Below the pieces are notes generated by a model that saw only the letters and a list, made by a program, of their open reading frames with translations, was not told the DNA's origin and searched no databases. A stretch of DNA of 64,000 nt from an uncultured Gammaproteobacteria bacterium. GTDB taxonomy: Bacteria > Patescibacteriota > Microgenomatia > Levybacterales > UBA12049. This document shows, one piece after another, positions 1 through 21,609 of the stretch (the stretch's first letter is position 1; each line of letters starts with the position of its first letter). The stretch lies in the NCBI GenBank assembly GCA_964637955.1, contig CAZWXQ010000003.1, forward strand, positions 223,154-287,153, given 5' to 3'. A program made the translations under genes and the position numbers.

Positions 1-238
1 GACGAATGGATTTAAGATGTACAAAAGAAGTTTGATTAAAAAAATCAAGCTCAAGTCCGTTGGGTGGGAATTCGGTATGGAGCTGGTAATAAAAGCAAAT
101 AGTCAGGGGTATAAAATTTCAGAAGTTCCTGTTACATCAAATAAAAGAACGCACGGAAAATCAAAGTTTAAGTTTTTTTCGTGGCTGCCTAATTACTTGC
201 GATGGCTTTTTTTAGGGATTTATTTGAGATTTAAGTAA
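1..238 (+). CDS. GT2-family glycosyltransferase, C-terminal fragment (polyprenol-phosphate sugar synthase, DPM1/ArnC-like). The 5' end lies outside the window.
   Basis: The open frame runs from position 2 with no upstream stop. The translation ...[19 protein letters not shown] matches the conserved C-terminus of DPM1-like GT2 enzymes (EVP..F.DR..G.SK) and is followed by a hydrophobic tail. Confidence 0.55.
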
Positions 239-1068
239 GAAAGGGAATTATCTATATTTTTCAAGATGGATTTATTTGAAGCGTTATGAAATTTATCTGT
301 AATTAGTACGCTTTTTTTCTTTCTGTAGGAAATTCTTTCACTTAAAAACTCATTAAATGAAATCTTTTTAATAAGCTTACTATTTAGATTCAACTGATTA
401 GCAGCTTTAATAAGGAGCTCATAATTTGATTTTGAATCTAGGGCGCCTAGATTGTAGATGCCTTGAAGATTATTATTTACTGCAAAGAGAATTGACTGTG
501 CTGCAATAGTTACATATATTGGATTATTTATTTGATCAATAATGCCAGGGAATTCTTTATTTTTAGATAAATTATCTATCATTCTTTGTATGAAATTTTC
601 CTTATTCCCATTGCCAAATAAATTAATAATTCTAAGAGAAGCAGTTTTTTTAAATGTTAGAACTGTGTATTCTCCTTTTTCTTTACTTATTCCATACACA
701 CTCTTTGCTTTGGTTTTATCAATTTCGGTGAATTCAAATTTATTTTTGTAACCATCGAAAACTGCATCAGTAGAAATATAATAAAAGGATATATTATTTT
801 TCGATGCAAACTTAGCTAGAAGTCCAGGGATTTTATAGTTAAGGTTGTTTGTAATAGTTTTGTTTTTTTGAGCAAAATCCATTGACGAGATTCCTGCACA
901 GTAAATAATTTTTTCAGGCATTAATTTGTAAATATATTCATAAATATCTTGTGTATTATTCAAGTCTATGTTTGATCTTGGGGGAGCAATCAATTTTTTG
1001 TCAATTTTTAGAATGGTTGATCCTAGAAATCCAGAACCACCAAAAAGCAATATTTTCCTAGAAGGCAT
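220..1068 (-). CDS. NAD(P)-dependent sugar-nucleotide reductase, dTDP-4-dehydrorhamnose reductase (RmlD)-like
   Basis: The N-terminus carries a Rossmann motif, [15 protein letters not shown]. An ISTDAVFDG motif matches the RmlD STDYVFDG signature. Confidence 0.6.
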
Positions 1069-1272
1069 ATCGTTTATTATTTTTAATAATTATTTTATAA
1101 ATCTCAAGCACGATTCTTATACCTCCAGCATATAAATTCTTTATTGTAAATTAAAATTTTATCTTATTCCAATCCGATGGGTGAACATTTTTCTCATACT
1201 AGACTAATAAGCTAGAGCATTATATATTTGTAAAATGTTATTTGTAAATACGGCTGAGCGATTTAACATAGT

Positions 1273-3831
1273 TTGATAAAAAATATGAAAACCTCTTTAA
1301 TTCTAACGGTTTTTAACGAAGAAAAAAATATTCTGAATTTTTTAAATTCATTAAAAATTCAAATAAAAAAATCTGATGAAATTCTTATAGTAGATGCGTG
1401 TTCTACTGATAATACAGTTCTAGTTATAAAAGGTTTTATAGAAAAAAATAAAAAAATAAACTTAAAGATATTTTCTAAAAATGGAAATATTTCAGTCGGT
1501 AGAAATTACGCAATTAAAAATGCAAAGAATGAAATTATTCTTTGTACTGATGCGGACTGTGAATTAGATAAAAAGTGGGTTAAAAATATTTCTATACCTT
1601 TTGAAGATAAGAAAATTGATGTAGTAGCTGGTTTTTATAAACCCAAAGCAAATTCAGTATTTGAAAAATGTCTTGCAACATATACAAGTGTTATGCCGGA
1701 TAAATTGGATAAAGATAACTTTATTCCTTCGTCTAGATCAATTGCGTTTAGAAAATCTGCTTGGGAAAAAATTGGCGGATATCCGCAGTGGCTTGATAGA
1801 GGTGAAGACTTATATTTTGCAAAAGCCTTAAAAGAAAAAGGACTTAATTTCAAATTTGCTAAAGACGCATTTGTTCACTGGCCTCAGAGAAAAAATCTTC
1901 ACGAAGCGTTTATGCAATTTTATGGATATGCAAAAGGAGACGGACAAGCATTAAATATTAGAAACGGAGCTTTATTAGTTTATCTTAGGTACTTTTTAGC
2001 AAGTTATCTTATTTTTATAAGTATCTTAGAAAGGTCTATTATTGGAGTACTGTTTGTCGGGATCTTATTTATTTTTTATATACTCTGGAGCATTAAAAAA
2101 AATTATTATTATGTGAAAGAAAAGAAAGCAATATTTATTTTACCTTTACTTCAATTTGCCGCAGATTTTGCAATTCTTTCAGGTACGATTTTAGGTTTAA
2201 TTAGGAGAATTTCTTTTATAAAAATTAAAAAAGTTTTTATTGAAAACAAATTCATATTACTTGTTTTATGGATATATACTTTTTATTTACTTTTTACCAT
2301 AAACTCTGGGGCACCTGGGATGAATAATCCCTATCCTTTTAATATGGATGAATGGCATCAATTTCAAGCCGTAAGGACTACTGTAGCTTATGGTACTCCG
2401 AATATTTTTGGCTCAGCGAATGGAACAATGCTTCATTTTTTAATATCTGCAATTTATCTTGTTCCATTTACGCTAATTGGGTACATAGACCCAATTAATT
2501 TACCTGTTACTGATCTATTAATGAGGGGGAGAATCTTCGACCTTTTAAGAATAAATACCTTAATATTTGGATTATTTTCAATTCTAGCTTTGTATTTATT
2601 AGCGAAGAAATTAAATATCTCAAAAATAATTACAATATTATTTTTTGTATTTTCTCCGATTTGGATAAGCTTTAGTGGACTTTTTAAATATGATATAGCG
2701 CTTTCATTTTTTATTATTACATCTTTACTTATTTTTATTAATTTTATAAAGAATCCATCAGCAAAGAATTATTTTATTTGTGCTGCTATTGCCGCTTTAG
2801 CATTTTCTGTAAAATTTAGCGCTTTGCCATTGTTGCCAATTTTAATAATTTCATTTTTTTGTTTTTTTAAAAATCCTTTTCATAATTTAAAAATATTTTT
2901 GATAAGCTGTGCGATTTATTTAATTACAGTATTACTTTTTGGTGTTCCAGATACTGTATTTGGAAATGGAAATATAATTCTCTTTTTAAGAGAAAATTTA
3001 ATTGGATTTCCTTCTTCTGTAGGAAGTTTCAGCTTGGGAATGAATCCAAGGATTTTTTTACTTTTTAAACAATACCCAATAATTTTTGGACACAGTATGT
3101 TTTTATTATTTTTACTCTCACTTGTTGGACTTACATATTTCTTGATAAAAGCATGGTTAAAGAAAAATAACTCAAATTATAAAGACGACTTATTTATTCT
3201 ACTTTCATTTGCATTATTTTATATTAGCTTAATTCCATTAAATTTATATGCTGGGGGAAATAAAAGTTTGGTACTCCTACCGTTTATAGTTTTAATAATT
3301 GGACTTTTTTTGAAGAGATCAAAAGATTATGGATTGACTAGAAAAACTGTTCCCTTTTTAGTAATAATAGTTTTAATATTAAATATTTTTGAGACTTTTC
3401 TTTGGATAAATTTAAAAAGGGCTGAAAGTCCACAATTTATAGCTTCAGAATGGATAATAAAAAATATTCCTAAAGGAACAGAGATAGGACTTGAAAATGT
3501 GCCAATATATCAAGGGATTCCTGATATTTTAGAAAAAGAATTTTATTTCAAGCAAGATGGTTATGGAGAAGCTAATATTTATAAATACTCTATAATTGAC
3601 TCAAATTCTGAGAAATTACCTAAGGTGATAGTAATATCAAACGGTGAGATCGATAGCATAACAAATAAAAATTCAGTTAAAAAAAAGTTAATTGAAAGAT
3701 TATATAGAGAGGGTTATGTAAAAAAGTATGATTTACATGCAAAAAAACCTTATAAAATGTCTGAATTAGATTTTCATTTTTCATGGATTGGGTTTGCTCA
3801 AACTTCACTTGCTGTTTATATAAAGAAGTAG
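1273..3831 (+). CDS. Fusion protein: N-terminal GT2 (GT-A fold) domain joined to a large polytopic GT-C-like (ArnT/PMT-like) membrane domain
   Basis: It is 852 aa. The first ~230 aa carry GT2 motifs (IVDACSTDNT, CTDADCELD). The rest holds at least 12 hydrophobic segments with an extracytoplasmic-loop NMDEW acidic motif typical of GT-C enzymes. Confidence 0.65.
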   Translation: MIKNMKTSLILTVFNEEKNILNFLNSLKIQIKKSDEILIVDACSTDNTVLVIKGFIEKNKKINLKIFSKNGNISVGRNYAIKNAKNEIILCTDADCELDKKWVKNISIPFEDKKIDVVAGFYKPKANSVFEKCLATYTSVMPDKLDKDNFIPSSRSIAFRKSAWEKIGGYPQWLDRGEDLYFAKALKEKGLNFKFAKDAFVHWPQRKNLHEAFMQFYGYAKGDGQALNIRNGALLVYLRYFLASYLIFISILERSIIGVLFVGILFIFYILWSIKKNYYYVKEKKAIFILPLLQFAADFAILSGTILGLIRRISFIKIKKVFIENKFILLVLWIYTFYLLFTINSGAPGMNNPYPFNMDEWHQFQAVRTTVAYGTPNIFGSANGTMLHFLISAIYLVPFTLIGYIDPINLPVTDLLMRGRIFDLLRINTLIFGLFSILALYLLAKKLNISKIITILFFVFSPIWISFSGLFKYDIALSFFIITSLLIFINFIKNPSAKNYFICAAIAALAFSVKFSALPLLPILIISFFCFFKNPFHNLKIFLISCAIYLITVLLFGVPDTVFGNGNIILFLRENLIGFPSSVGSFSLGMNPRIFLLFKQYPIIFGHSMFLLFLLSLVGLTYFLIKAWLKKNNSNYKDDLFILLSFALFYISLIPLNLYAGGNKSLVLLPFIVLIIGLFLKRSKDYGLTRKTVPFLVIIVLILNIFETFLWINLKRAESPQFIASEWIIKNIPKGTEIGLENVPIYQGIPDILEKEFYFKQDGYGEANIYKYSIIDSNSEKLPKVIVISNGEIDSITNKNSVKKKLIERLYREGYVKKYDLHAKKPYKMSELDFHFSWIGFAQTSLAVYIKK

Positions 3832-3849
3832 CATTGTTATAATGCTTTT

Positions 3850-5067
3850 ATGGGATATAAAACACCTGCTTTAAAAGGTATCACCTGGATGGGTTTTCTT
3901 AGAGCTTCTACGAGATTAATCGCATTCGTAAGGTTGGCTGTTCTTGCAAGAATACTTTCACCTGCTCAATTCGGTGCCTTTGGTGTTGCTACGCTCGTTC
4001 TTTCATTTCTTGAGGTAATTACCGAAACTGGAATAAATGTATTTCTGATACAAAATAAAGAAAAATCTAATGATTATATTAGTTCTGCCTGGATTGTCTC
4101 GATTGTAAGAGGTAGTTTAATTGCTCTTTTGTTGGTTTTATTTGCTCCTTTAATCTCTAGTTTTTTTAATTCTCCAGAGTCATATAATATTCTACTCCTT
4201 ATAGCACCGGTTCCGTTTATTAGAGGATTTATAAACCCTTCAATAATTAATATTCAGAAAAATATAGAATTTCATAAAGAATTTTACCTACGCTCAATTT
4301 TGCTTTTAGTAGATGCAAGTGTTGCTATTATTGCAGCTTTTGTAACAAAAAGCGCCGTAAGTATGGCATATGGACTTATCGTCTCTGCGGTCATTGAAGT
4401 AGTATTATCTTTTATACTATTTAAACCATGGCCAAAGTTAACTTTCGAGAAAGATAAGATGCTCCATATTTTTAGTAGGGGATGGTCTGTTACTTTAACG
4501 GGAATTTTCCTATATTTGTCTGAAAATTTAGACAATATTACTGTTGGGAGAATACTTGGTGTAGGTTCTCTTGGAATTTATCAAAATGCCTATAAGATTT
4601 CTACTCTTACGATATCTGAAATTGCTGAAGTAGTAAATAAAGTTACATTTCCAGTTTATTCTAAATTTTCAGATGATAAGCAGAGATTAAGTAATGCGTT
4701 TAAGAAAGTCATCTCTTCGTCATCGTTAGTAGCAATAGCGCTTGGAATATTTATTTTTATTTTTGCAGATTTAATAGTTAGAATTATTCTTGGGCCGGAT
4801 TGGGCTAGCGCAGTTCCAATTGTAAAAATACTTTCTGTTTATGGAGTTCTGCGAACAATTTTTGGAAATGTACCACCATTGCTATTGTCCCTTGGAAAGC
4901 AGAAGTATGTTGCAGGAATTGTTTTTGTGAGGCTTTTTGTTTTGGCTATTGTAATAGTTCCTTTAGTAAGTAGATTTGGCATGGAAGGCGCGGCCTATGC
5001 AATGGTAATCTCAGTATTTGCAGAAATTCCTCTTATGATATTTTCAGCAAGGAGGGTTTTAAAATAA
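3850..5067 (+). CDS. MOP-superfamily polysaccharide flippase (Wzx-like)
   Basis: It is a 405 aa polytopic protein. The N-terminus RLAVLARILSPAQFGAFGVATLVLSFLEVITETGINVFLIQ matches the polysaccharide biosynthesis protein (Wzx) family signature. Confidence 0.65.
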   Translation: MGYKTPALKGITWMGFLRASTRLIAFVRLAVLARILSPAQFGAFGVATLVLSFLEVITETGINVFLIQNKEKSNDYISSAWIVSIVRGSLIALLLVLFAPLISSFFNSPESYNILLLIAPVPFIRGFINPSIINIQKNIEFHKEFYLRSILLLVDASVAIIAAFVTKSAVSMAYGLIVSAVIEVVLSFILFKPWPKLTFEKDKMLHIFSRGWSVTLTGIFLYLSENLDNITVGRILGVGSLGIYQNAYKISTLTISEIAEVVNKVTFPVYSKFSDDKQRLSNAFKKVISSSSLVAIALGIFIFIFADLIVRIILGPDWASAVPIVKILSVYGVLRTIFGNVPPLLLSLGKQKYVAGIVFVRLFVLAIVIVPLVSRFGMEGAAYAMVISVFAEIPLMIFSARRVLK

Positions 5068-5900
5068 TGAAAGGCCTCAGCCCGGAAATCTACGATACTG
5101 ATTACTATTTAAACTCAAACTTAGGATCTGAAGAATTTAAAAAATATAAAGGTAAAAAAGTTCATGAAACCATTTATAATTTTGCAAATCTTCTTGGAGA
5201 CGTTAAGAATAAAAAAATTTTAGATTTAGGATGCGGAAGGGGAGATTTGGTAATTGAACTTGCAAGGAGAGGAGCGCTAGCAACTGGCGTTGATTATTCG
5301 AAGGATGGTATAGATTTAGCAAAAGCTGCTCTTAAAATTCAGTCAAAAGAAATAAAAAGTAGAACTAATTTTTTTGTCAAGGATATTGTTAAAACAGATT
5401 TTGAAAAGAATAGTTTTGATATTGTAGTTTCCACTGATGTTTTTGAGCATTTATATAAGGAGGAGCTGGAAATTGTCGTTGAGAAGCTTTCAAAAACATT
5501 AAATCCAAATGGATTTTTATTAATTCACACAGGGACTAATAAAATTTATCTTGATTTTACTCATATCCTTTGGTGTTATTGGATGGATTTGTTTCTTTTA
5601 AAAATTTACAATTTTATATCAAGAAATAATTATCCTGGACTTCCTAAAGACCCAAGAAATGATCTGCATAAAACTCAGCATGTAAATGAACCAACTTATT
5701 TTTATCTAAAATCTTTGTTTGAAAGACATGAATTTAAAGGAGAAATTAATTCTATGGTGCCATATAAACCAAATTTAAGCTGGAAAGATAAAATTTATAA
5801 CATCATAGTTTATCTTTATCCAATATCTAATTATTTTCCGCTAAATTTAATGTTTGCAACCGAATATATTTGCTTGCAAAAGAAAGACACAAAAAAGTAA
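5067..5900 (+). CDS. Class I SAM-dependent methyltransferase
   Basis: Motif I is ILDLGCGRGDLVIELA. An acidic residue ends beta2 (GVDYS). A DVFEHL motif is present. Confidence 0.7.
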   Translation: MKGLSPEIYDTDYYLNSNLGSEEFKKYKGKKVHETIYNFANLLGDVKNKKILDLGCGRGDLVIELARRGALATGVDYSKDGIDLAKAALKIQSKEIKSRTNFFVKDIVKTDFEKNSFDIVVSTDVFEHLYKEELEIVVEKLSKTLNPNGFLLIHTGTNKIYLDFTHILWCYWMDLFLLKIYNFISRNNYPGLPKDPRNDLHKTQHVNEPTYFYLKSLFERHEFKGEINSMVPYKPNLSWKDKIYNIIVYLYPISNYFPLNLMFATEYICLQKKDTKK

Positions 5901-5935
5901 TTTTAAAATTTGGTAGAATCTTCTAGATAAAACTA

Positions 5936-7024
5936 ATGAAAATAGCTTTTTTCCATGAACTGCCATATGGAGGTGCAAGACGCGCTGTTCTTGAGTTTGG
6001 AAAAGCTATGGGAAGTGAGCACCAAGTTGATATTTTTTATATCGACGAAAAAAAAGAAGAAAAAGTTGAAAAAATATTTAATAAATCTAAATTTTATAAA
6101 TTTACACCTCGAAAATGGAGTGGAGGAGATTGGAAATCAAAGTTACATAAAGATACTATAGAGCTTGTTAAGTTATACAAAATCCACAAAGAAATTGCGA
6201 AAAATATTGATCAAAAAGATTACGACTTCGTTTTTGTACATGGGTCTAAATTTACCCAAGCACCATTTATTTTAAGATTACTAAAAACCAAGTCAATTTA
6301 TTATTGCCAAGAGCCATTGAGAATGGTTTATGAAGATCTTTTCGATATTCCAGTTGATTTATCAATTGGTAAAAAAATATATGAAAGAATTAATAGAAAC
6401 AACAGGAGATTAATTGATAAATATTGTGCAAAAAAAGCAAACATTTTGCTTGCAAACTCAAGATTTACAAAAATGAATATAAAGTCTTGGCTTGGTCTGG
6501 ATTCTGTAGTGGCATATATGGGAATAGACCCTAAAAGATTTTATCCTGAAAAAGTTAAGAAAGAATTTGATTTGCTTTTTGTGGGGTCCAGAGAAGAAAT
6601 TGATGGATATTCTTTTTTTGTAAGATCGCTTGATAACATGAAAAAAAAGCCGAGCGTGAGGTGGTTGCTTCGTGAAGATGAGTGGATTGATGACGATAGC
6701 AAGTTAAGAGATATATATTCGAAATCAAAAATTTTGGTTTGTACGGCATATAAAGAGCCTTTTGGATTACTTCCAATTGAAGCTCAGGCTTGTGGTCTTG
6801 CTGTAGTAGCGGTTAAAGAAGGTGGTTATTTGGATACCGTTGAAAATGATAAGACCGGGATATTATTTAAAAGGAATGAAAAAGTCCTAGCAGAGACACT
6901 TAGTGAAATTTTAAAAGACACAAAAAAAGTTGATGAATTTTCAAAAAATGCAATTGAAAATATTAAAAATAATTGGACCTGGGATATAAATTCTAAAAAA
7001 ATTATTGAGATTGCAAATTCATAA
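5936..7024 (+). CDS. GT4-family (GT-B fold) glycosyltransferase
   Basis: The C-terminal EX7E motif is EPFGLLPIEAQACGLAVVA. Length is 362 aa. Confidence 0.75.
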   Translation: MKIAFFHELPYGGARRAVLEFGKAMGSEHQVDIFYIDEKKEEKVEKIFNKSKFYKFTPRKWSGGDWKSKLHKDTIELVKLYKIHKEIAKNIDQKDYDFVFVHGSKFTQAPFILRLLKTKSIYYCQEPLRMVYEDLFDIPVDLSIGKKIYERINRNNRRLIDKYCAKKANILLANSRFTKMNIKSWLGLDSVVAYMGIDPKRFYPEKVKKEFDLLFVGSREEIDGYSFFVRSLDNMKKKPSVRWLLREDEWIDDDSKLRDIYSKSKILVCTAYKEPFGLLPIEAQACGLAVVAVKEGGYLDTVENDKTGILFKRNEKVLAETLSEILKDTKKVDEFSKNAIENIKNNWTWDINSKKIIEIANS

Positions 7025-7052
7025 AAAAATGATGCTATAATACCTCAATCTT

Positions 7053-8087: not shown

Positions 8088-8254
8088 ACCCGTTGATTAA
8101 ATTGTAATTGCAATAAATTTTAATATAAAAAATATTGACCCCCATAGAGAAAGATTTAAAGGCATTAATAATCTGCCTGTTTATGATATTAAGAATAAGA
8201 AAGTGATAAAGAAAAAGGAAATATGCGAATAATAAAAAATACATTTTCGTACCA

Positions 8255-12216: not shown

Positions 12217-12341
12217 ATAATCTTAAATGTTATAATAGCTTAAGTATAATTTAAAGTGACTAAAGCCGCATTTTTTTTCATATTCTGGAGTATTCTCATT
12301 TTAATCATCTATGTATATTTTCTGCTTTGTAGAGGAGGATT

Positions 12342-13919
12342 ATGTTTGCAATAGCAATTTTAATTGGTATTTACTCTTATATAATTTTTGCTCTTGGGAT
12401 AGTGGGATTTTTGTCTAAGATTCCAGTTTTGATTTCTACTATAATTTTTCTTTTTGGCGCTGCATTATATTTTAAAAAGCATAGGGAAGATCTTCCAAGA
12501 TTTCAAATTAAAAACCGAAAATTTAAACAACTATTTATTCTATTTTGTGTCTTCGCAGTCATAAATCTAGTCGGAGTATTAGGGCCTGAAATTTCTTTTG
12601 ATGCTTTGTGGTATCACCTGACCATTCCCAAAATCTTTATCGATGCACATAAAATATTTTTTATTGAAGGAAACATTTTTTATTATTCACTAATGCCAAA
12701 ACTTACGGAAATGCTTTATATTCCAGCATTAATGTTTGGTAATGAAAACCTTCCAAAGTTTATTCAATGGTCTTTTGGTATTCTAACAAGCATCGTTGTT
12801 TACAAGATTTCAAGAAAATATTTTGATGAAAAAGTTTCATTTTTTGCTGTGCTTATATTTTATGGAAGTTTGGTAGTGGCTTGGGAATCGACTGTAGCAT
12901 ATATAGATTTATCTCGAACTTTTTTTGAGGTGATGGGACTTCTTGGATTTATAAATTGGTATGAAACAAAAGATAGGAAATGGTTGGTGGAATCAGCAGT
13001 GATGGTAGGATTTGCAATGTCTACAAAAAATTTGGCGATTGGGAGTCTAGTAATTTATTTTGTTTTATTTTTATGTGCAGATAAAAATTATAAACAGATG
13101 ATAAAAAATGCGATATTATTTGTGCTCGTAGCAATATTAACAGCATTGCCTTGGTATCTCTATGCGTATATGTTTTCAGGAAATCCTATCTATCCATTTT
13201 TTGATAAGAGAATAGTTTATAATACTTCATCAGCAATTAATTTAATTACGTTTCCAAAAGAAGCGTTTGATTTTTTCTTAAAACTTGCAGATCCTATTTC
13301 TCCTCTATTTTTAATATTCTTACCGTTAATAATAATTTATTTTAGAAGATTTAATAAACCATTAAAATTAATCGCAATTTACTGCTTGGTAGCAATAATA
13401 ATTTGGTATATAACTCCACGTACTGGTGGAGGGAGATTTATTCTTCCTTATCTTCCTGCTTTTTCGGTGGTCGCAATCGCAGCAATAAGTGAGTTTAAAG
13501 ATAAAAGAATTAAAAAGTTTTCATATTTTTTAATTATTTTGGTATTTGTAATTAATTTGACTTATAGAGCAGTTGCAAATTCCAGATATATACCAGTCAT
13601 AATTGGAAAAGAGTCAAAAGATGAATTTTTAACCAAAAATTTAAATTTTAATTTCAGTGAATTTTATGACACAGATGGATTTTTTAAAGAGAATATAAAA
13701 AAAAATGATAGAGTACTTCTTTTCGGATTCCACAATCTTTATTACGCAGACTTTCCATTTGTAGACTCTTCATATATTAAAAAAGGTGAAGAGTTTAACT
13801 TCGTCGCGACCCAAAACTCTGAACTTCCAGAAAGATTTAAAAATTGGGATTTAATTTATGTTAATGATCTTACAAAAGTTAAAGTATATACTTTAGGAAG
13901 AATAAAATGGCACTACTAA
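12342..13919 (+). CDS. Polytopic membrane protein, putative GT-C-like glycosyltransferase
   Basis: A strong Shine-Dalgarno sequence GAGGAGG lies 6 nt upstream of the ATG. The 525 aa protein has about 12 TM segments and an acidic first-loop motif (ISFDALWYH). Confidence 0.45.
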   Translation: MFAIAILIGIYSYIIFALGIVGFLSKIPVLISTIIFLFGAALYFKKHREDLPRFQIKNRKFKQLFILFCVFAVINLVGVLGPEISFDALWYHLTIPKIFIDAHKIFFIEGNIFYYSLMPKLTEMLYIPALMFGNENLPKFIQWSFGILTSIVVYKISRKYFDEKVSFFAVLIFYGSLVVAWESTVAYIDLSRTFFEVMGLLGFINWYETKDRKWLVESAVMVGFAMSTKNLAIGSLVIYFVLFLCADKNYKQMIKNAILFVLVAILTALPWYLYAYMFSGNPIYPFFDKRIVYNTSSAINLITFPKEAFDFFLKLADPISPLFLIFLPLIIIYFRRFNKPLKLIAIYCLVAIIIWYITPRTGGGRFILPYLPAFSVVAIAAISEFKDKRIKKFSYFLIILVFVINLTYRAVANSRYIPVIIGKESKDEFLTKNLNFNFSEFYDTDGFFKENIKKNDRVLLFGFHNLYYADFPFVDSSYIKKGEEFNFVATQNSELPERFKNWDLIYVNDLTKVKVYTLGRIKWHY

Positions 13920-15103
13920 AATATTTGTTTCCAATACTTTTCTTGGCATTTTCTTTCGGAGAACTAGCGCGAATAAGACTTTTTGCATCAGTTAATTCAG
14001 GAATATTCGATCTAATATTAATTTCTATTCTAGGGATTTGGTTTTTATTTTCCAAAAAATCAAAATACACCCTTTTAAAACCACTTCTACTTTTTTCAGG
14101 TCTAGCACTTTTTTCTTTAGTTATTAATTTTGGAAAATTTCATGTTGATCAGATTTTTATTTCGTCACTTTATCTTGTCAGATTTATTTTATACTCGGGA
14201 ATTTATTTTGTCTTAGTTGATCTAGATAAAAAAAATATAAATCGCATTTCTTTTTATATGCTTTTTTCAGGTCTAGTAATAATAATTTTAGGTTTTCTTC
14301 AATATTTCTTTTACCCAAGCTTAAAAAATTTATACTATCTGGGATGGGATGATCATATGTACAGGTTGTTTTCCACTTTTCTTGACCCAAATTTTACCGG
14401 ATCATTTTTTGTTTTGTTTCTGGTGTTTGTATATATTCTCAAAGAAAAGTTATTTCCAAAAAAATACTTGTGGGCTTCATATCTTGTAATAGCTTTAAAT
14501 TTGATTGCGATAGTTCTGACATTTTCTAGAGGTGCTCTTTTAATGCTTCTAGTTTGCGTAGTTACATATTCCTTATTATCTAAAAACTGGAAAATTACTG
14601 GAGGAATCATTGTCGGATTTATTTTGGTATTCTTTATTCTTTCTCCTAAGTTTTATGTTGAGAATATGAATTTACTTCGCTTCGCTTCCACTGAAGCAAG
14701 AATTGAGTCAGCAAAAAGGGGATTATCTATTTGGCAGGAAAATCCGATGGGAGTAGGATTCAATACTTACAGATTCGCTCGCAAAGCTTATGAGCCCACA
14801 GATTGGACTAATTTTGGTCCAAGTCATGCTGGGAGTGGTATTGATAATAGTTTAATTTTGGTTCTTGCTACAGCGGGTTTTATGGGCTTTGGCGCGTATG
14901 TGTACCTGCTTTATAGGATATTTAAATTGGGTTATTCGAATATTCATGAGAAAGTTAAAGAAAATAAGTTTGCTTTAGTGCTTGTTATTTCGCTCGTTGG
15001 ACTTACGGTAAACAGTTTATTTATCAATAGCCTTTTTTATAGCTTTTTATTATTTTGGATTTTTGTTCTTGCTGGACTTACTGAGAATAGTTCACGTGAA
15101 TGA
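13907..15103 (+). CDS. O-antigen ligase / Wzy_C-domain glycan polymerase family protein
   Basis: It is multi-TM with the LTFSRGALLMLL motif typical of the Wzy_C domain. Length is 398 aa. Confidence 0.6.
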   Translation: MALLKYLFPILFLAFSFGELARIRLFASVNSGIFDLILISILGIWFLFSKKSKYTLLKPLLLFSGLALFSLVINFGKFHVDQIFISSLYLVRFILYSGIYFVLVDLDKKNINRISFYMLFSGLVIIILGFLQYFFYPSLKNLYYLGWDDHMYRLFSTFLDPNFTGSFFVLFLVFVYILKEKLFPKKYLWASYLVIALNLIAIVLTFSRGALLMLLVCVVTYSLLSKNWKITGGIIVGFILVFFILSPKFYVENMNLLRFASTEARIESAKRGLSIWQENPMGVGFNTYRFARKAYEPTDWTNFGPSHAGSGIDNSLILVLATAGFMGFGAYVYLLYRIFKLGYSNIHEKVKENKFALVLVISLVGLTVNSLFINSLFYSFLLFWIFVLAGLTENSSRE

Positions 15104-15890
15104 TTTTTTCAGTTGAATTTCCAGCTCCATCAGTAGAAACTACTTTGATTTCATTATCCCCACCTTTAAGAGTTAAGAAGTAAGACCATTCATTTTGGTT
15201 ATTAAGAATTGCTTGAAAATCATTGACGATTACGCTACTGTCGGGATCACTTTTTCCTTTTACTTCAATTGGATTTGCTCCTGAAATTTGTGCGCCATCA
15301 GAAGGAGAATCGATACTAAGCTCAGGTCCCTTTATTTTATAAGAAACTGTTTGAGAAGGTGAGAATTCGCTTTCAGAAGCGCCTTTAAGAGCTTTTGCTT
15401 TTATGATATTTTCGCCGTCAGTAAGTTCAATATTTGTTTCGAAATCACCATTTTCATCAGCTTTTACTTCTGCTTCTTTGCTACCATTTAAATAAACATA
15501 AACGGTGAGTCCTGAAATGGATGATCCTCCGATTCTCAAAAGCTTTTCTTTGGTTGCTTTGGGTAGTCCATCTAAATCTGGAGCTGAAACAAATTCTTTT
15601 TCAGTTTCCATAGTTTCTTTTTTATCAGGTGAGCTAGTAATTTTTCCAAATAAAAAGCTGGCATCACTAATAAGTGGTAATCCAAATTTGAATAGAAGTG
15701 CGAGAATAATAATTATTCCCAAGACACTAAAAATGAAAGTGTTTCTGGATTTTCTTTGAAAACTTTTATTTAGTCTTGATCTTTTTGGCATAGGTTCTTG
15801 ATTTGTTTTTGGAACATTACTGGAAGAAATATTTTCTTCTCCATCTATTCTAATATTAGCACTTTCGATAGGTGTTTGATTATCCGTCAT
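15078..15890 (-). CDS. Membrane-anchored surface protein with bacterial Ig-like repeats
   Basis: It has a basic N-terminal tail, one TM helix (FIFSVLGIIIILALLF), then two beta-rich repeats ending in DG(A)GN-type motifs. Confidence 0.45.
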   Translation of the reverse strand: MTDNQTPIESANIRIDGEENISSSNVPKTNQEPMPKRSRLNKSFQRKSRNTFIFSVLGIIIILALLFKFGLPLISDASFLFGKITSSPDKKETMETEKEFVSAPDLDGLPKATKEKLLRIGGSSISGLTVYVYLNGSKEAEVKADENGDFETNIELTDGENIIKAKALKGASESEFSPSQTVSYKIKGPELSIDSPSDGAQISGANPIEVKGKSDPDSSVIVNDFQAILNNQNEWSYFLTLKGGDNEIKVVSTDGAGNSTEKIIHVNYSQ

Positions 15891-16441
15891 TTTACATTTT
15901 TGTATTTAAGTATGTGGTCGTCGTATCCATTTTCAAGTTTAATGCCATTTGGAAATTTTCCTAAAACTTTATATCCGGCTTTCTCATACATTCGAACTGC
16001 TTTCTCATTACTTGCGAATGCAGTTAAAAATATTATTTCCAGGTCTGGTAGAGTTTCTATAGCCTCTTTTTCTATTTGATCCAGTAGAATTTTTCCAATT
16101 CCTTTTCCCCTGTAATCTTTAGCAATAGAAATTCCAAGTGTTCCGATATGCCTTTCAGTTCTTTTTCCAAGATCTATCGCAGAATTGCCAATTAGTTTAT
16201 TGTCCGCGAATACCAAAAGCATTACTGATTTTTTATTCAAAATTTGTTCTAATTTCGAATTTAAAAAAGAAATTTCAGTCTCTAAAGTCTCATGTTCGCC
16301 TTGATACGCGATAAATGTTCTTTCATCAGACAGAGTATTTATGTAATCTGTCATGACCTGGGCATCAGAAGAGTCTGGATATCTAATCAGAATTTCTATT
16401 CCTGTTTCTGTTTTGCCTTGAAATACTATTTTTGTATCCAT
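15887..16441 (-). CDS. GNAT-family N-acetyltransferase
   Basis: The acetyl-CoA binding motif A is LGISIAKDYRGKGIGKILL. Length is 184 aa. Confidence 0.75.
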   Translation of the reverse strand: MDTKIVFQGKTETGIEILIRYPDSSDAQVMTDYINTLSDERTFIAYQGEHETLETEISFLNSKLEQILNKKSVMLLVFADNKLIGNSAIDLGKRTERHIGTLGISIAKDYRGKGIGKILLDQIEKEAIETLPDLEIIFLTAFASNEKAVRMYEKAGYKVLGKFPNGIKLENGYDDHILKYKNVK

Positions 16442-16557
16442 ATTAATTAACTGATTGTAATTTATCTTTAACTACTATATTTATAGCCAGTAATTTTAGT
16501 GAGCCGAAGATGAAGATCGAACTCACGGCTTGCTCTTTATACCATTAAATTTTGTTG

Positions 16558-16629
16558 AGCCGTTTCTCGGGATTGAACCGAGGACCTACTCTTTACGAAA
16601 GAGTTGCTCTACCACTGAGCTAAAACGGC
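16558..16629 (-). tRNA. tRNA-Thr (anticodon CGU)
   Basis: The reverse complement folds as a cloverleaf. The acceptor is GCCGTTT/AAACGGC, the D-arm GCTC/GAGC, the anticodon stem ACTCT/AGAGT with loop TTCGTAA, and the T-arm CTCGG-TTCAATC-CCGAG. No CCA is encoded. Confidence 0.75.
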
Positions 16630-16681
16630 ACAGCTCGTTAATTTTACGTAAAAAAGTCCGAAAGGGCAAGAAAATCAACTA

Positions 16682-17920
16682 ATGTTGATTGACATTATAG
16701 GTTTTGATAAAATTCCGTCCATGAACATAGAAGCAGGTCCAAATATTGGTAGTTGGGAAAGTTACGGTGGGGGAGTTTTTAGAAGAGAATCAAGTTTCCC
16801 TGATGGTAAAAGAGTATTAGAGAAAAAGATTACGACTGGATTTAAAAAAGAGTCGAGGCAAGAAACTTATCCAGATGGAATGGAGAGATTTTCAAGTTTT
16901 ACTGACAGGGAAGAATTCCTTAAAAATATTGGAAGCGTTGCTTTACTTGAATCTATTGCTCCACCTGTAGAAATAAGATATCAATTTGACGGGACCCAAG
17001 TTTCACTATTTTTTTCTGATGATGGCCAAACACATATCTTGATGTCTTTTGGTGAGTTTGGTACTTCCTGGGTGAGTAGAAATCATTCTACTTTTATATA
17101 TGCGAATTATGATACTGAAGGTAAAATAGCGAATTTGTCATTAAAAACAGACGAGATTAAAGAAAAAATAGAGCATGAAGAATTTGATGATTCTTATGCT
17201 GCACTTCATGAGCTCATGTCATATATCGACCATGATCTAGATGAATATTCGGGTATAATACAGGGTGGTATTATTCATCTAAATGAGCAGATAGAAAGAT
17301 TTTCGAGTGATCAAAATACTCTAGATTTTCTGAGGGGCTTTAGCTCTATTCTTTACGAGAGAGTTTTAGATATGATTGATGACCCAATAGAACGAGAGAA
17401 AGCAGACGTAAAGCTTAAAAAAATTGGACTGGAAGATGATATTTTATATCGTTTGCTTGTAGAGGCAGACCCAGGAGAAACAATAAGTAGAAAGGCATTA
17501 GAGGATATAGAAAGTGGAGAATTTATAAAAGATATTATAAGTAGTTCAGTAGATGTTGCTTCAAGATCAAATCGTTTTTATTCGAAACGGAGAGTGTCGA
17601 TAAATGTGTCAAATGAGAATGAATTTACATATCGAGAAACAGAACTTGATTCAGAAAAAGAACTCGAGGGCTATGCGCTAGTAGCTGAAGATAAATTTGA
17701 GTGGGATGAAGTTATTAAAAGTCAGGATATGGAAATAAGTTTTAGTATAAACGAGAATATGCTTAAGATTTTATGGAAAAGAAGTGATAGGCAGGTGTAT
17801 ATGGCAGAGATTCCATATAAATTAACTGATAAAAATGCATATAAAATAGCGAAGGATCCAGATGCAGACTTCAGGGTAGTAAGAGATCTAATTCCAGCTA
17901 GTCTTCAAAAAGTAGTTTAA
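16682..17920 (+). CDS. Hypothetical acidic soluble protein
   Basis: It is a 412 aa ORF with no recognisable motif. An alternative leaderless start at 16721 (MNIEAG) sits 7 nt after a TTGATT-N17-TAAAAT promoter-like element. Confidence 0.5.
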   Translation: MLIDIIGFDKIPSMNIEAGPNIGSWESYGGGVFRRESSFPDGKRVLEKKITTGFKKESRQETYPDGMERFSSFTDREEFLKNIGSVALLESIAPPVEIRYQFDGTQVSLFFSDDGQTHILMSFGEFGTSWVSRNHSTFIYANYDTEGKIANLSLKTDEIKEKIEHEEFDDSYAALHELMSYIDHDLDEYSGIIQGGIIHLNEQIERFSSDQNTLDFLRGFSSILYERVLDMIDDPIEREKADVKLKKIGLEDDILYRLLVEADPGETISRKALEDIESGEFIKDIISSSVDVASRSNRFYSKRRVSINVSNENEFTYRETELDSEKELEGYALVAEDKFEWDEVIKSQDMEISFSINENMLKILWKRSDRQVYMAEIPYKLTDKNAYKIAKDPDADFRVVRDLIPASLQKVV

Positions 17921-17940
17921 TGCTATAATTTTAGGAATTC

Positions 17941-19146
17941 ATGAATAAGTCACTTTCTTGGTTTATTTCTCGCATCGCATTAATTATTTTTGCCTACATA
18001 ATTCTTTATTTTGGCCTGAATGGTTTGACTAGCACTTACAGAGAGGGTGATAGTATTAATTATCATATTCCGATCGCTGAAGCCTTTTTAAATGGAGACA
18101 TAGTTAATCCAGCAAATTTTCAAGCGGAAAGATTTCTCAAGTATTCACCTGGAAGTAGTGAGGCAGTTATAGCTGGATTAATGCTACTTAAGATTCCAAT
18201 AAATGTTTTTAATGTAATTGCAGTTATCGTTTTGTTTGGAGTTTGTTTCTTCACTGCTAGACGGTTTCTCATGGAAAAAGATTACGCGATAATTTTCGCA
18301 GGAAGTATAGTGACACTTCATACTATGACTCGATGGATAAATACCCAGGTTGTAGATATTTGGATAGCTATTTGGTTTTTTTTGGTTCTTGGTCTTTTAG
18401 AGAAGCCGGAAAAATCTATAAAGTATTTTTTATTCCTAGGTTTTGGAGCTGGAATGTTAATTGGATCCAAATATTCAGGGCCACTTTTTCTTTTGGTTTT
18501 AGGAATTTTTTATTTTAAGAAGATTCTAAAATTCATAAATTTAGAAAGAATAATAGCCTTTCTAATTCCATTTTCACTAGCAGGACTTACTTGGTATTTT
18601 AGAAACTTTTTAGTGACAGGAAATCCTATGTATCCTCAAGGATTTCTTATGTTTAAGGACGGAGGATTTAAAATTTTGAACATAAATGTTTGGCGGGCTA
18701 CATTTTTATATCCGAGCGGAATAAGTAACTTTATAAACGCCATAATTAGCGAGTTCGGCTTATGGTCAATTTCGATTTTTACTCCACTGTTATTGTTAAA
18801 TAAAAAAATCAGAAATACAAATTATGTAAGTTTGATTTTCATTGGAAGCTTCGTGTTTGCTATCTTCCTTTTTCTTCCATCAGATAGACATTATAATATA
18901 GCTGTATCAGTTTTCAGATATTCTTATCCAGCGTTTATTACATTTATTCTAGCGATATTTTTACTTGCTAAAAAGTTTAAAAAGGAAAATATACTTATTA
19001 TTTTCGCTCTCGCAAATATGATTATAATTCCAGAGCTAGCATATAGACCAAAATTAATTTTTTTACTTTTGCCAATAGTTTTTATAGTTTTTTATGAAGA
19101 TGAAGTGGTGAAATTTATTAAAGGTAAAGCTCGGCAAGTAAATTAA
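17941..19146 (+). CDS. Polytopic membrane protein, putative GT-C-like glycosyltransferase
   Basis: It is 401 aa with at least 9 TM helices and a first-loop YREGDSINYH acidic motif. It converges on the polyprenol-P sugar synthase gene. Confidence 0.45.
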   Translation: MNKSLSWFISRIALIIFAYIILYFGLNGLTSTYREGDSINYHIPIAEAFLNGDIVNPANFQAERFLKYSPGSSEAVIAGLMLLKIPINVFNVIAVIVLFGVCFFTARRFLMEKDYAIIFAGSIVTLHTMTRWINTQVVDIWIAIWFFLVLGLLEKPEKSIKYFLFLGFGAGMLIGSKYSGPLFLLVLGIFYFKKILKFINLERIIAFLIPFSLAGLTWYFRNFLVTGNPMYPQGFLMFKDGGFKILNINVWRATFLYPSGISNFINAIISEFGLWSISIFTPLLLLNKKIRNTNYVSLIFIGSFVFAIFLFLPSDRHYNIAVSVFRYSYPAFITFILAIFLLAKKFKKENILIIFALANMIIIPELAYRPKLIFLLLPIVFIVFYEDEVVKFIKGKARQVN

Positions 19147-19816
19147 AAATAAGTTTAATCCCAGTAATGGTATGAAGCTTACTCTTGCCCCATTTTCTGG
19201 CGTTTTCGCGAGTAGGAACTTCCATAAGTCTATATTTTTTCTTCAGGCATTTGACCACAAATTCCTGTTCTATATCAAAACCGTCTGCTTTAAGGTCTAG
19301 TTTTAGAGCCACAGATTTTTTGACAGCGCGAAAGCTAAAAAGCACATCGCTATAACCAGTGTTAAACCTTTTGTTTACCAGATAGGCAAGGAAATCTGCG
19401 CCGCCTGATCTGGCGATTCCCCAGAAGTCCATGTTTAGATCATAGCTTCCGCCAGTGCGCCTCGAACCAATCACGGCATCTGCTTTATCTTGAAAAAGGG
19501 GATTTAATAAAGAAGGAATTTCTTTTTCATTATGTGATCCATCAGCGTCAAAGAACAGAAGATATGGATTCTTGGCTTTTTTAATTCCAATGCGCACTGC
19601 GTCTCCGCGACCAACACCATTATCTAGAATATAGTGAGCTCCAAACTTCTTTGTAATTTCCTTCGTAGAGTCCGTAGAATGCCCATCAACGACGATTATT
19701 TCGCTTCCGTATGGCTTTACACTTTTCAGTATTCGAAGCAGCCCTTCGCCTTCATTACGTGCTGGGATAATTACTGTAACTTTTGATTTATTAAAACGAG
19801 TCGCTTTTGTTGCCAT
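19118..19816 (-). CDS. GT2 polyprenol-monophosphate sugar synthase (DPM1/GtrB-like)
   Basis: VTVIIPARNEGEGL...IIVVDGHSTDSTKEI matches this family. Length is 232 aa. Confidence 0.75.
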   Translation of the reverse strand: MATKATRFNKSKVTVIIPARNEGEGLLRILKSVKPYGSEIIVVDGHSTDSTKEITKKFGAHYILDNGVGRGDAVRIGIKKAKNPYLLFFDADGSHNEKEIPSLLNPLFQDKADAVIGSRRTGGSYDLNMDFWGIARSGGADFLAYLVNKRFNTGYSDVLFSFRAVKKSVALKLDLKADGFDIEQEFVVKCLKKKYRLMEVPTRENARKWGKSKLHTITGIKLIFNLLAELYL

Positions 19817-20397: not shown

Positions 20398-20488
20398 GTA
20401 TCTCTAAGTTAGCAAAAGTTGTAAATTTAATTTCTATATTTGCAGCGTTCGATGACTTTGATTTTGATAAGTTTGGTAAGATAAGAGA

Positions 20489-21535: not shown

Positions 21536-21580
21536 ACAAAGCTAGGAAAATTAATTTTTGTGTTTGCACGTTCGATAATG

Positions 21581-21609
21581 TTGACACTGGCTTTTGAAGT
21601 GATATAATC
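21581..21609 (+). promoter_or_regulatory. Sigma70-type promoter, TTGACA-N16-TATAAT, 10 nt upstream of the ATG at 21619 (leaderless)
   Basis: TTGACA spans 21581-21586 and TATAAT 21603-21608, read directly from the sequence. Confidence 0.5.

Follow-up and report, generated by a model that had tools for sequence, protein, structure and literature searches.

Does a dense run of membrane-embedded glycosyltransferases (GTs), lower in GC than the DNA to its right, belong to the inherited machinery with which its host assembles surface glycans, or was it acquired from elsewhere? This question is raised by a 64,000-nt stretch of contig CAZWXQ010000003.1 (the window), of which the first ~20 kb (1-19816) form the locus studied here. 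A preliminary description of this DNA had read the locus as an AT-rich island of GT-C-like membrane transferases and polyprenyl-phosphate sugar synthases, and had suggested that it arose by lateral acquisition or under strong diversifying selection. The functional part of that description, a lipid-carrier-dependent assembly of glycans with extracytoplasmic glycosylation, fits what we find, namely five GT-C_A enzymes, one Wzy_C protein (GT-C_B), DPM1-like synthases, a MOP-superfamily flippase and Leloir glycosyltransferases. We consider it probable (roughly 0.75) that these genes form one portion of an envelope-glycan assembly locus inherited vertically in a Patescibacterium of the Microgenomates type (Candidate Phyla Radiation).

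Gene families were assigned by Pfam and NCBIfam scans of the window proteins, with E <= 0.01 as the limit for null family calls. The genes of the locus are listed below (aa, amino acids; ORF, open reading frame; SDR, short-chain dehydrogenase/reductase; TM, transmembrane).

2-238, plus strand: DPM1/GtrB-like polyprenyl-phosphate sugar synthase, C-terminal 78 of 235 aa, clipped at the window edge
220-1068, minus strand: RmlD-like NAD(P)-dependent sugar reductase (RmlD_sub_bind 5.5e-37; TIGR01214 1.5e-35, under the curated cutoff)
1285-3831, plus strand: 848-aa fusion of a GT2-TM part and a GT-C/PMT_2 part (Glycos_transf_2 3.6e-24; PMT_2 30.6 bits, cutoff 26.1)
3850-5067, plus strand: MOP-superfamily (Wzx-type) flippase, 405 aa (Polysacc_synt_3 1.6e-71; PRK10459 1.6e-53; TuaB 6e-45)
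5067-5900, plus strand: S-adenosylmethionine-dependent methyltransferase (Methyltransf_25/11/31, 1e-18 to 1e-19)
5936-7024, plus strand: GT4 (GT-B fold) Leloir glycosyltransferase (Glycos_transf_1 9.3e-22; Glyco_transf_4 1.4e-7)
7053-8087, plus strand: SDR nucleotide-sugar 4,6-dehydratase/epimerase (GDP_Man_Dehyd 2.9e-51; Epimerase 5e-50; dTDP-glucose 4,6-dehydratase model 7e-56, under cutoff)
8255-10459, plus strand: 734-aa fusion of a GT2 and a GT-C/PMT_2 part (Glycos_transf_2 2.5e-21; PMT_2 37.1 bits; TIGR01556 1.7e-15)
10456-11214, plus strand: soluble GT2, 252 aa (Glycos_transf_2 1.6e-14)
11152-12216, minus strand: minimal membrane protein of predicted GT-C fold, 354 aa (no Pfam match)
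12342-13919, plus strand: 525-aa GT-C, PMT_2, ArnT-like (PMT_2 1.6e-10, 41.9 bits)
13907-15103, plus strand: membrane protein with a Wzy_C domain (Wzy_C 1.6e-12)
15078-15890, minus strand: single-pass membrane protein (one predicted TM helix) with two extracellular Ig-like domains (Glucodextran_B 1.2e-17)
15887-16441, minus strand: GNAT acetyltransferase (Acetyltransf_1 6e-15)
16557-16629, minus strand: tRNA-Thr(CGU), within the locus (ARAGORN and Rfam)
16682-17920: 412-aa ORF in a variable slot (no Pfam or NCBIfam match)
17941-19146, plus strand: 401-aa enzyme of predicted GT-C fold, uncharacterised family (no Pfam match)
19118-19816, minus strand: 232-aa DPM1-like polyprenyl-phosphate sugar synthase (AglJ 1.2e-40; PpgS 1e-19; Dol-P hexose transferase 1.5e-13)

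Every ORF named in the preliminary description exists where it was placed, and its Wzx flippase, GT4, RmlD-like reductase, SDR epimerase, methyltransferase and GNAT protein are all borne out by Pfam or NCBIfam matches. The GT2 at 10456-11214, the Ig-like protein at 15078-15890, the tRNA-Thr at 16557-16629 and the unrelated variable ORF at 16682-17920 had not been listed. The ORF of the 848-aa protein opens at a TTG at 1273, and on two metagenome contigs the gene is called with 848 aa, in agreement with the ATG at 1285. As regards its extent, the cluster of ~20 kb is real, but its AT-rich stretch stops near 15.1 kb and not at 19.8 kb, and the cluster is not confined to the window, since it runs on for at least 9.3 kb leftward of position 1.

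Six polytopic proteins are GT-C-like, as had been proposed: the products of 1285-3831, 8255-10459 and 12342-13919 pass the Pfam gathering threshold of PMT_2, the 401-aa and 354-aa proteins belong here by predicted fold, and the sixth is the Wzy_C protein. All six are encoded within the first 19.2 kb of the window, and just two genes in the remaining 44 kb score as hydrophobic, those for subunit a of the ATP synthase and for an M48 peptidase. When solved structures were searched by sequence, neither the GT-C domains nor the Wzy_C protein had a match, which made a comparison of folds necessary. The 401-aa protein was modelled with AlphaFold (AF2) from an alignment of 85 homologous sequences and the 354-aa protein from 18, and the folds were compared by Foldseek. 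The best solved-structure match of the 401-aa model (mean predicted local distance difference test score, pLDDT, 95.1) is ArnT (E 8.6e-5, TM-score 0.55, 14-15% identity), and PglB, ALG12, AftB, ALG9, Pmt4 and PimE are among its further top matches; the 354-aa model (pLDDT 86.9) matches PIG-M (9.8e-4), STT3, ALG3, PimE and ArnT. The significant matches of both models are exclusively GT-C or GT-C-fold proteins, and transporters and G-protein-coupled receptors stand far down both lists, with low probability and TM-scores of ~0.15.

Conserved residues point in the same direction. In the 85 sequences of the 401-aa family, a G-D-S-x-x-Y-H-I-P motif in the first outer loop is invariant, including D37, Y41 and H42, and the first outer loop of the 354-aa family carries Q-[E/D]-x-Y-x-x-Y, with an acidic residue at position 44 in 18 out of 18 sequences and with Q43, Y46 and Y49 invariant. 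In both families, an acidic residue with aromatics behind it stands right after the first helix, which is the place of the catalytic acid of GT-C enzymes. When the sequences of the 848-aa, 734-aa and 525-aa proteins are read directly, DE, GD and FD motifs, respectively, follow the first TM helix, the last of these within FDALWYH in the first outer loop. By PMT_2 profile or by model, all five proteins thus combine a GT-C fold with a conserved acidic residue in the first extracytoplasmic loop; such a residue, in a polytopic protein of 7-13 TM helices whose fold matches solved GT-C enzymes, is taken here to define GT-C_A. These enzymes would draw on polyprenyl-phosphate-linked sugar donors, as is suggested by their co-location with DPM1-like synthases. 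O-antigen-ligase-type proteins have been placed in a GT-C_B class (PMC10920833), so that the Wzy_C protein can defensibly be counted as GT-C-like.

The membrane proteins, which were to be profiled against GT39, GT83 and DUF2723, come out as GT-C, by profile or fold, and not as transporters, with PMT_2 as the matching family. At E <= 0.01, no island protein matches PMT, PMT_4TMC or MIR, which argues against GT39 protein O-mannosyltransferases, and none matches DUF2723, the model for TMEM260-like GT-Cs. Orthology with the GT83 enzyme ArnT, the lipid A aminoarabinose transferase, is not supported either, since the 525-aa protein (ArnT model E 2.8e-7) scores 29.5 bits against a PRK13279 cutoff of 567; by profile and model, the 525-aa and 401-aa proteins are ArnT-like in fold only. 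The 401-aa family aligns with the 525-aa PMT_2 paralogue (hhalign E 1.1e-4 over 250 columns), and its alignment with the 354-aa family is not significant. A Pfam scan of the 85 homologues of the 401-aa protein assigned no family, DUF8201 is carried by some members of this family, and PMT_2 is present in one homologue of the 354-aa protein.

The claim of vertical inheritance is carried by the gene order in relatives, which were found via exact-protein look-ups of homologues: the loci L024/L025, L026/L028 and L027, for which DNA was at hand, and P0141, for which there was a gene table. The locus, whose presence or absence in related genomes had been put forward as a check on its origin, is not absent from these relatives but collinear in all of them. 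In the three relatives with DNA, a GT2-PMT_2 fusion is followed by the 252-aa GT2, a GT-C of ~350 aa on the minus strand, the 525-aa PMT_2 protein, Wzy_C, the Ig-like protein and the GNAT (both on the minus strand), the same tRNA-Thr at the same place (L024, L026 and L027), a variable slot, the 401-aa GT-C, the DPM1-like GT2 on the minus strand, variable hypothetical genes and then the atp operon. On the P0141 contig, the core genes are retained from the fusion as far as the Ig-like protein, as is the small GT2; there is no GNAT at that position, and a 576-aa unannotated ORF stands in place of the 401-aa GT-C. Outside this group, a scan of a genome collection with the DPM1-like GT2 found one distant Patescibacterial relative, L003, which keeps only the GT2/GT-C pair.

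Orthologues of the 401-aa GT-C in the relatives are 73-81% identical to that of the window. Corresponding values are 53% for the 734-aa fusion and 77% for the 252-aa GT2, at the same position, in L026, 69-85% for the 525-aa GT-C in L024, L026 and L027, and 75-86% for Wzy_C, again at the same position; the GNAT is kept in the three relatives with DNA. In each of these three, AT-richness recurs at the same genes (GC 0.29-0.31 vs 0.36). Neither an integrase nor a transposase domain was found in the island by the Pfam scans, the 3' end of the tRNA-Thr is not repeated in the window, and those homologues of island proteins that carry an organism name are all Patescibacterial (Levybacteria, Roizmanbacteria, 'Patescibacteria group'). 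Taken together, the collinear loci, the recurrent AT-richness, the lack of an integrase and the Patescibacterial homologues show that the core, 8255-19816, with the 734-aa fusion as its first gene, is ancestral to this lineage.

The genes left of 8255, including the 848-aa fusion, form a cassette that differs between relatives. In one relative it comprises an oxidoreductase, a sugar isomerase-like protein, a carbamoyltransferase, a different PMT_2 GT-C and a methyltransferase-GT2 fusion, and in P0141 a thiamine pyrophosphate (TPP)-dependent E1 alpha/beta pair, SDRs, small GT2s, a 318-aa GT2 with Wzx, a GT4, a GNAT and a DegT protein. A conserved core with a variable cassette is a layout typical of surface-glycan loci, and it makes diversifying evolution a better fit than lateral acquisition. 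The diversifying selection suggested earlier is plausible: the cassette is swapped between relatives, and island proteins are 53-86% identical between them (the exception being the DPM1-like GT2, 89-96% in L024, L026 and L027), compared with mostly 86-94% for ATP synthase subunits (76-80% for subunit b).

Five ORFs lacking a Pfam or NCBIfam match flank the GT-C/DPM1-like pair (16682-17920 and 19882-23786). In the relatives, the place of the 412-aa ORF at 16682-17920 is either empty or taken by an ORF of 221-222 aa, and the genes that separate the GT2 from the atp operon are shuffled. Both segments resemble small slots of variable content in a region whose synteny is otherwise kept. The 412-aa ORF had no match in species-representative genomes and is lacking in the relatives; we considered it as a part of the glycan system and rejected it as a strain-variable insert. 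A tRNA-like fragment (TGAGCCG...GATCGAAC...) at 16497-16534, 23 bp from the tRNA-Thr, is not called by ARAGORN and was not found by an exact-match search of three relatives; this fragment may be what is left of a decayed copy of a tRNA.

Which of the GT2 enzymes could make the lipid-linked donors? The preliminary description had counted the small GT2s and the GT2 modules of the fusion proteins alike as DPM1-like, which holds for 2-238 and 19118-19816 but not for the modules of either fusion. The product of 19118-19816 aligns with its best solved relative, the dolichol-phosphate-mannose synthase of P. furiosus (5mlz, 4e-15), over residues 5-225, that is, the whole GT-A domain, and ArnC is matched also. 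The 235-aa GT2 that ends at 238 matches PgfS (2.5e-16), AglJ (2.5e-15), Dol-P hexose transferase (5e-14), PpgS (7e-13) and ArnC (1.3e-11), and a 225-aa GT2 at 51331-52008 is likewise DPM1-like (AglJ 1.2e-36). A full-length GT-A domain of the DPM1/GtrB/ArnC kind, including the C-terminal acceptor half, is found in these three and in a 252-aa GT2 left of the window, with all scores under the equivalog cutoffs. The DPM1-like GT2s have ~225-235 aa, and no TM helix was predicted by hydropathy scan in the two that were tested. The GT2/GT-C pair 19118-19816 / 17941-19146, whose genes are convergent, is kept in L003 and L024-L028.

The N-terminal module of the 848-aa protein has a different profile, with K4CP (chondroitin synthase, 1e-22), TarS (1e-18), TarP and the archaeal membrane mannosyltransferase PcManGT (2.6e-16) as matches, whereas DPMS, ArnC and GtrB align to its N-terminal, nucleotide-binding half only (7.5e-9 to 4.6e-6). 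It also shows Glyco_transf_21 and Glyco_trans_2_3 features and matches to the lipid-acting GT2s HpnI and CruG. The GT2 of the 734-aa fusion is WbbL/rhamnosyltransferase-like (TIGR01556). As judged from these profiles, which favour K4CP/TarS/PcManGT and WbbL instead, we rejected the fused modules as putative DPM1-like donor synthases.

In the 848-aa protein, a cytoplasmic GT2 with a TM hairpin (~1-310) is followed by the GT-C/PMT_2 membrane domain (~335-720), with the DE motif after the first helix of that domain, and by a C-terminal extracytoplasmic domain; in the 734-aa protein, the GT2 (1-265) is directly joined to the GT-C/PMT_2 domain. The latter has at least 716 homologues, of which the best 120 are full length and share 41-58% identity with it, in nearly every case over 97-100% of the query; those of the best 120 with an organism name are all Patescibacteria (Levybacteria, Roizmanbacteria), and databases label them merely 'glycosyltransferase' or WbbL-like. 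For the 848-aa protein, an exhaustive search gave 767 cluster representatives below 1e-30, including 19 full-length GT2-TM+GT-C fusions and many stand-alone N modules (~310-325 aa, GT2 plus TM hairpin) and C modules (~500-570 aa, GT-C). Eight longer proteins match the N module alone: six are joined to a MOP flippase, one to another PMT_2 domain, and one is a multidomain protein of 1256 aa with GT4, TPR and methyltransferase parts. In the window, the MOP flippase gene starts 19 bp after the 848-aa fusion gene, and on the P0141 contig the stand-alone 318-aa GT2 is followed by Wzx.

The alternation of GT2-TM/GT-C and GT2-TM/MOP fusions, together with this adjacency of genes, would indicate that the GT2-TM module, the flippase and the GT-C perform successive steps on one lipid-linked intermediate. 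On the profile matches of the N module, the view is favoured that the GT2-TM module completes a lipid-linked acceptor rather than makes a lipid-linked donor. A bolder proposal, which we regard as doubtful, is that the three make up a glycosylation machine of a kind not described before and independent of GtrB, in which synthesis, flipping and transfer are physically coupled in one complex or polypeptide. Such a machine would account for the fact that no GtrA-type flippase is seen and, if it exists, it would serve as a compact model of the passage of lipid-linked sugars from the inner to the outer leaflet.

The flippase and the Wzy_C protein (Polysacc_synt_3 and Wzy_C, respectively) may correspond to the flippase and polymerase of Wzx/Wzy systems, although the Wzy_C family also spans ligases and O-oligosaccharyltransferases. 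The Wzy_C protein is accordingly described here as a putative polymerase, ligase or O-oligosaccharyltransferase of GT-C_B type, and the MOP flippase may instead carry a monosaccharide-lipid donor. The flippase is short, with 405 aa and ~10 predicted TM helices, and aligns to the first ~400 of the 492 positions of PRK10459; as a relative has a version of 406 aa, its length is not a truncation artefact. The gene of the Ig-like protein is kept in all relatives, always convergent with and overlapping that of Wzy_C, and the protein is a candidate for an accessory protein or an acceptor. Three convergent gene pairs of the locus overlap at their 3' ends (11152-11214, 63 bp; 15078-15103, 26 bp; 19118-19146, 29 bp), and the same three overlaps in L026 measure 63, 26 and 35 bp; these may couple the expression of the paired genes.

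The sugars to be transferred appear to be prepared in two further groups of genes. The first lies left of the window, on the metagenome contig L020, which overlaps the window by 4519 bp with 0 mismatches and yields the full 235-aa GT2 (the product of 2-238 is 100% identical to that of L020 4282-4989) and 9.3 kb of sequence further leftward. Because of this overlap, the cluster must span at least ~29 kb and is cut by the window. The second is at 51331-63006.

L020 4990-13823, directly left of window position 1: sugar C-methyltransferase (Methyltransf_13/14), dehydratase-like SDR, LegC/PseC-like DegT aminotransferase
Further genes of this left extension: thiolase, acetoacetyl-CoA-reductase-like SDR (ketoreductase), hexapeptide acyltransferase, 252-aa DPM1-like GT2, nucleotide-sugar dehydrogenase
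51331-63006, mostly minus strand, probable precursor-supply cluster: DPM1-like GT2, four SDRs (one of them Fcl-like, 9e-129), methyltransferase, DegT aminotransferase, TPP-dependent E1 alpha/beta pair
Predicted heptose genes of the same cluster: HddA-like heptose-7-phosphate kinase (3e-47), GmhA (1e-59), HAD phosphatase
62287-63006, plus strand, same cluster: HddC/ManC-like nucleotidyltransferase

In the left extension, the thiolase, the acetoacetyl-CoA-reductase-like SDR and the hexapeptide acyltransferase possibly make an N-3-hydroxybutyryl amino sugar. By its family matches, the cluster at 51-63 kb is predicted to encode a pathway of the GDP-glycero-manno-heptose type, together with tailoring enzymes and with a polyprenyl-phosphate sugar synthase at its end. 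The TPP alpha/beta pair, which resembles pyruvate dehydrogenase E1, hints at a sugar that is acylated or has a two-carbon branch. This cluster probably feeds donors to the GT-C enzymes of the island: in P0141, members of the same Pfam families, namely two SDRs, a 246-aa GT2 and an E1 alpha/beta pair, directly adjoin the island core, an arrangement that we count in favour of such a supply.

Our working scheme is as follows. Nucleotide sugars would be tailored in the cytoplasm by the RmlD-like reductase, the SDRs, the methyltransferase, the enzymes of the left extension and the GDP-heptose-type cluster at 51-63 kb. On the cytoplasmic face, a lipid-linked glycan would be built by the Leloir enzymes, that is, the GT4, the 252-aa GT2 of the core and both fused GT2 modules, and the MOP flippase would carry the lipid-linked intermediate outward, where the Wzy_C enzyme would polymerise it or ligate it to the final acceptor. 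The five GT-C_A enzymes would add sugars outside, from polyprenyl-phosphate monosaccharides made by the small DPM1-like GT2s (2-238, 19118-19816, 51331-52008 and one more left of the window). As the acceptor, we judge a polysaccharide anchored in the wall or the membrane somewhat more likely than a protein. In its logic, the scheme agrees with that of established three-component systems (PMC11127046). The assembly of wall polysaccharides in mycobacteria and streptococci follows a like logic.

Several points weigh against this scheme. We did not find, among the scanned window proteins, a priming phosphoglycosyl transferase of WbaP/PglC or WecA type, an LCP ligase, a GtrA-type flippase or a chain-length regulator, so that the pathway cannot be closed from the window; the priming transferase and the chain-length regulator were not found among the genes called on the 9.3-kb left extension either, and are possibly encoded elsewhere in the genome. 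No acceptor was identified among the window genes. Nearly all NCBIfam matches are under the curated cutoffs, and sugar specificity is therefore not assignable. The Foldseek E-value of ~1e-3 for the 354-aa protein is modest, and GT-C folds are also known in the non-catalytic PIG-U. It should also be noted that function is read here from sequences and predicted structures, and that we infer the order of the steps, the donors and the acceptor from them; what is observed are the family and fold assignments, the synteny, the composition and the fusion patterns.

Among the alternatives, the one that survives best, although we consider it unlikely, is that the locus serves mainly for the O-glycosylation of proteins, such as an S-layer protein, a pilin or another surface protein, with Wzy_C as a PglL/WsaB-like O-oligosaccharyltransferase and with PMT/PgfM-like GT-Cs. 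O-oligosaccharyltransferases do belong to the Wzy_C family, the Wzy_C protein matches the putative O-glycosylation ligase model TIGR03097 (5.5e-8), the best match of the GT2 at the left edge is PgfS, from a streptococcal protein glycosylation system, and the Wzy_C gene always has that of the conserved Ig-like surface protein as its partner. In addition, the S-layer glycan clusters of Gram-positive bacteria unite a Wzy_C transferase with rhamnose and GDP-heptose pathways. However, all these matches are far under the family cutoffs, PMT (GT39) and MIR matches are lacking at the limit given above, neither an acceptor protein nor a sequon is identifiable, and five GT-Cs together with Wzy_C exceed the needs of any described protein glycosylation system.

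Slightly less probable again is that the product is a membrane-anchored lipoglycan, like mycobacterial lipomannan (LM) and lipoarabinomannan (LAM) or a glycosylated lipoteichoic acid; a membrane GT2 would glycosylate a lipid anchor, the MOP flippase would export it, and the GT-Cs would extend it outside with polyprenyl-phosphate sugars. This would agree with the lipid-acting features of the 848-aa N module and its HpnI and CruG matches, with the fusion of this module to MOP flippases or GT-Cs, and with the presence of several GT-Cs beside several DPM1-like synthases, as in LM/LAM assembly, PimE being a recurrent structural match. Yet the N module is closer to glycan-acting GT2s (K4CP, TarS, TarP, PcManGT), the Wzy_C enzyme and the WbbL-like GT2 point to a polyprenyl-diphosphate-linked intermediate, and no genes for the synthesis of an anchor lipid were seen.

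The view that the AT-rich block is a recently acquired genomic island, which we now hold to be very improbable, started from its composition, and the lower GC content noted earlier is indeed real: mean GC is 0.296 in the island genes (those within 1-15103) and 0.359 in the reference genes right of 19816 (Mann-Whitney p = 4e-6). Moreover, a tRNA-Thr lies within the locus, with the tRNA-like fragment adjacent to it. The difference is seen at the first (0.374 vs 0.483, p 3.8e-6), second (0.295 vs 0.341, p 0.0031) and third codon positions (0.217 vs 0.253, p 2.2e-4), but the synonymous-site composition, for which a divergence from the core would have been expected under foreign origin, does not differ (fourfold-degenerate GC 0.204 vs 0.216, p = 0.36). 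When the GC of each gene was recomputed from its amino-acid composition with the synonymous codon usage of the core genes, the amino-acid composition reproduced 74% of the gap. FYMINK residues (F, Y, M, I, N and K) make up 41% of the island proteins and 32% of the core proteins, and the soluble island enzymes behave likewise. This pattern, with the gap at codon positions 1 and 2 and not at fourfold sites, is what marks proteins under weak constraint or in fast evolution when the genome is AT-biased, and not DNA from a donor with another mutational bias. Thus, the AT-richness stems from the amino-acid composition of proteins that evolve fast and lie mostly in the membrane, in a genome with an AT bias, and not from a foreign origin. 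Together with the relatives that carry the same locus, tRNA and AT-richness, the Patescibacterial homologues, the lack of integrase and transposase domains and the unrepeated tRNA end, this largely refutes a lateral origin for the core, although an exchange of the left cassette (1-8.2 kb) among related Patescibacteria is possible. More generally, low GC in AT-biased genomes should not be taken as lateral transfer, since the signal can be, as it mostly is here, one of amino-acid composition.

Finally, that the polytopic proteins are transporters or permeases in a cluster that makes nucleotide sugars for a cytoplasmic purpose, which could appeal to the two membrane proteins that have no Pfam match, is hardly credible in view of the three proteins above the PMT_2 threshold, the GT-C-fold matches of both unannotated proteins with transporters at TM-scores of ~0.15, and the conserved acidic first-loop motifs.

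If our reading of an inherited envelope-glycan locus is right, this genome spends at least ~29 kb on one glycan locus plus ~12 kb on precursor genes. Patescibacteria have genomes of about a megabase and, as far as is known, are attached to or dependent on other cells, so that the cell surface is where their biology happens. The GT-C core with an exchangeable sugar cassette suggests a conserved scaffold with variable decoration, as expected under pressure from phages or host recognition. The fusion pattern leads to testable predictions as to which enzymes pass on lipid-linked intermediates, and the 354-aa and 401-aa GT-C families, being small and confidently modelled, are suited to structural and enzymatic work. 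In the literature searched, we found no description of Patescibacterial surface glycans, GT-C enzymes or glycan loci, and none of DUF8201.

Some other genes of the window may be mentioned. At 40642-44364, a Mur-ligase-like protein with MurT_C and a CobQ-like glutamine amidotransferase form a MurT/GatD-type pair, with an APH-family kinase between them, which suggests an amidated, Gram-positive-style peptidoglycan. Two neighbouring His_Phos_1 paralogues followed by a NUDIX hydrolase lie inside the gatCAB region (37926-39202), and the gene of a GGDEF diguanylate cyclase (33858-34748) overlaps the start of dnaE (30656-33883).

How does the locus compare with known systems? The type of system is familiar, whereas the enzymes, the 354-aa and 401-aa GT-C families and the GT2-GT-C and GT2-flippase fusions are unstudied. 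The first comparison set consists of the three-component systems (GtrA-GtrB-GtrC of Shigella and Salmonella, CsbB/YfhO of Bacillus, GacI/J/K/L of Group A Streptococcus, and the polyprenyl-phosphate-ribose system of Citrobacter youngae), for which it is established that MOP/MATE flippases and GT-C enzymes work with polyprenyl-phosphate sugars (PMC11127046). In their logic, a small GT2 makes a polyprenyl-phosphate monosaccharide, a flippase (MOP/MATE in some) exports it, and a GT-C transfers the sugar to the finished glycan outside. The pair 19118-19816 / 17941-19146 and the adjacency of the 848-aa fusion and MOP flippase genes resemble this arrangement. On the other hand, a GtrA-type flippase was not found here, the locus has five GT-Cs instead of one, two of its GT-Cs are fused to GT2 modules outside the GtrB/DPM1 family, and the two DPM1-like GT2s that were tested lack a predicted TM helix.

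A second parallel is offered by the assembly of mycobacterial arabinogalactan and LM/LAM, which involves WbbL, GlfT1/2, Ppm1, PimE, MptA/B, EmbA-C and AftA-D. The likeness lies in the combination of a WbbL-like GT2, several GT-Cs and DPM1-like synthases for polyprenyl-phosphate sugars, and PimE, AftA, AftB, AftD and Emb proteins are structural matches of our GT-C models, at 9-18% identity only. Unlike in mycobacteria, no genes of the arabinose (decaprenylphosphoryl-arabinose, DPA) pathway were found here, Wzy_C, a MOP flippase and GT2-GT-C fusions are present, and the host is a monoderm bacterium of the Candidate Phyla Radiation with a tiny genome.

With Wzx/Wzy loci (O-antigen, capsule, lactococcal polysaccharide pellicle, rhamnose-rich wall polysaccharide) and Gram-positive S-layer glycan (slg) clusters, the locus shares a MOP flippase, Wzy_C, GT2 and GT4 enzymes, sugar-nucleotide tailoring, a GDP-heptose pathway and a reductase of the rhamnose type, as well as the division into a conserved part and a cassette that can be replaced. 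It differs from them in that neither a priming transferase nor a chain-length regulator, an LCP ligase or an ABC transporter was seen in the window, in that GT-Cs outnumber the Leloir glycosyltransferases, and in that the flippase may serve a monosaccharide-lipid donor.

Lastly, HVR2 of SAR11 is a low-GC hypervariable glycosylation island of streamlined free-living bacteria. Both it and the locus described here are AT-rich surface-glycan regions of small genomes, with a gene content that varies between close relatives. In contrast to HVR2, however, the present locus has a stably syntenic core, and it is only the left cassette that varies, as judged between relatives.

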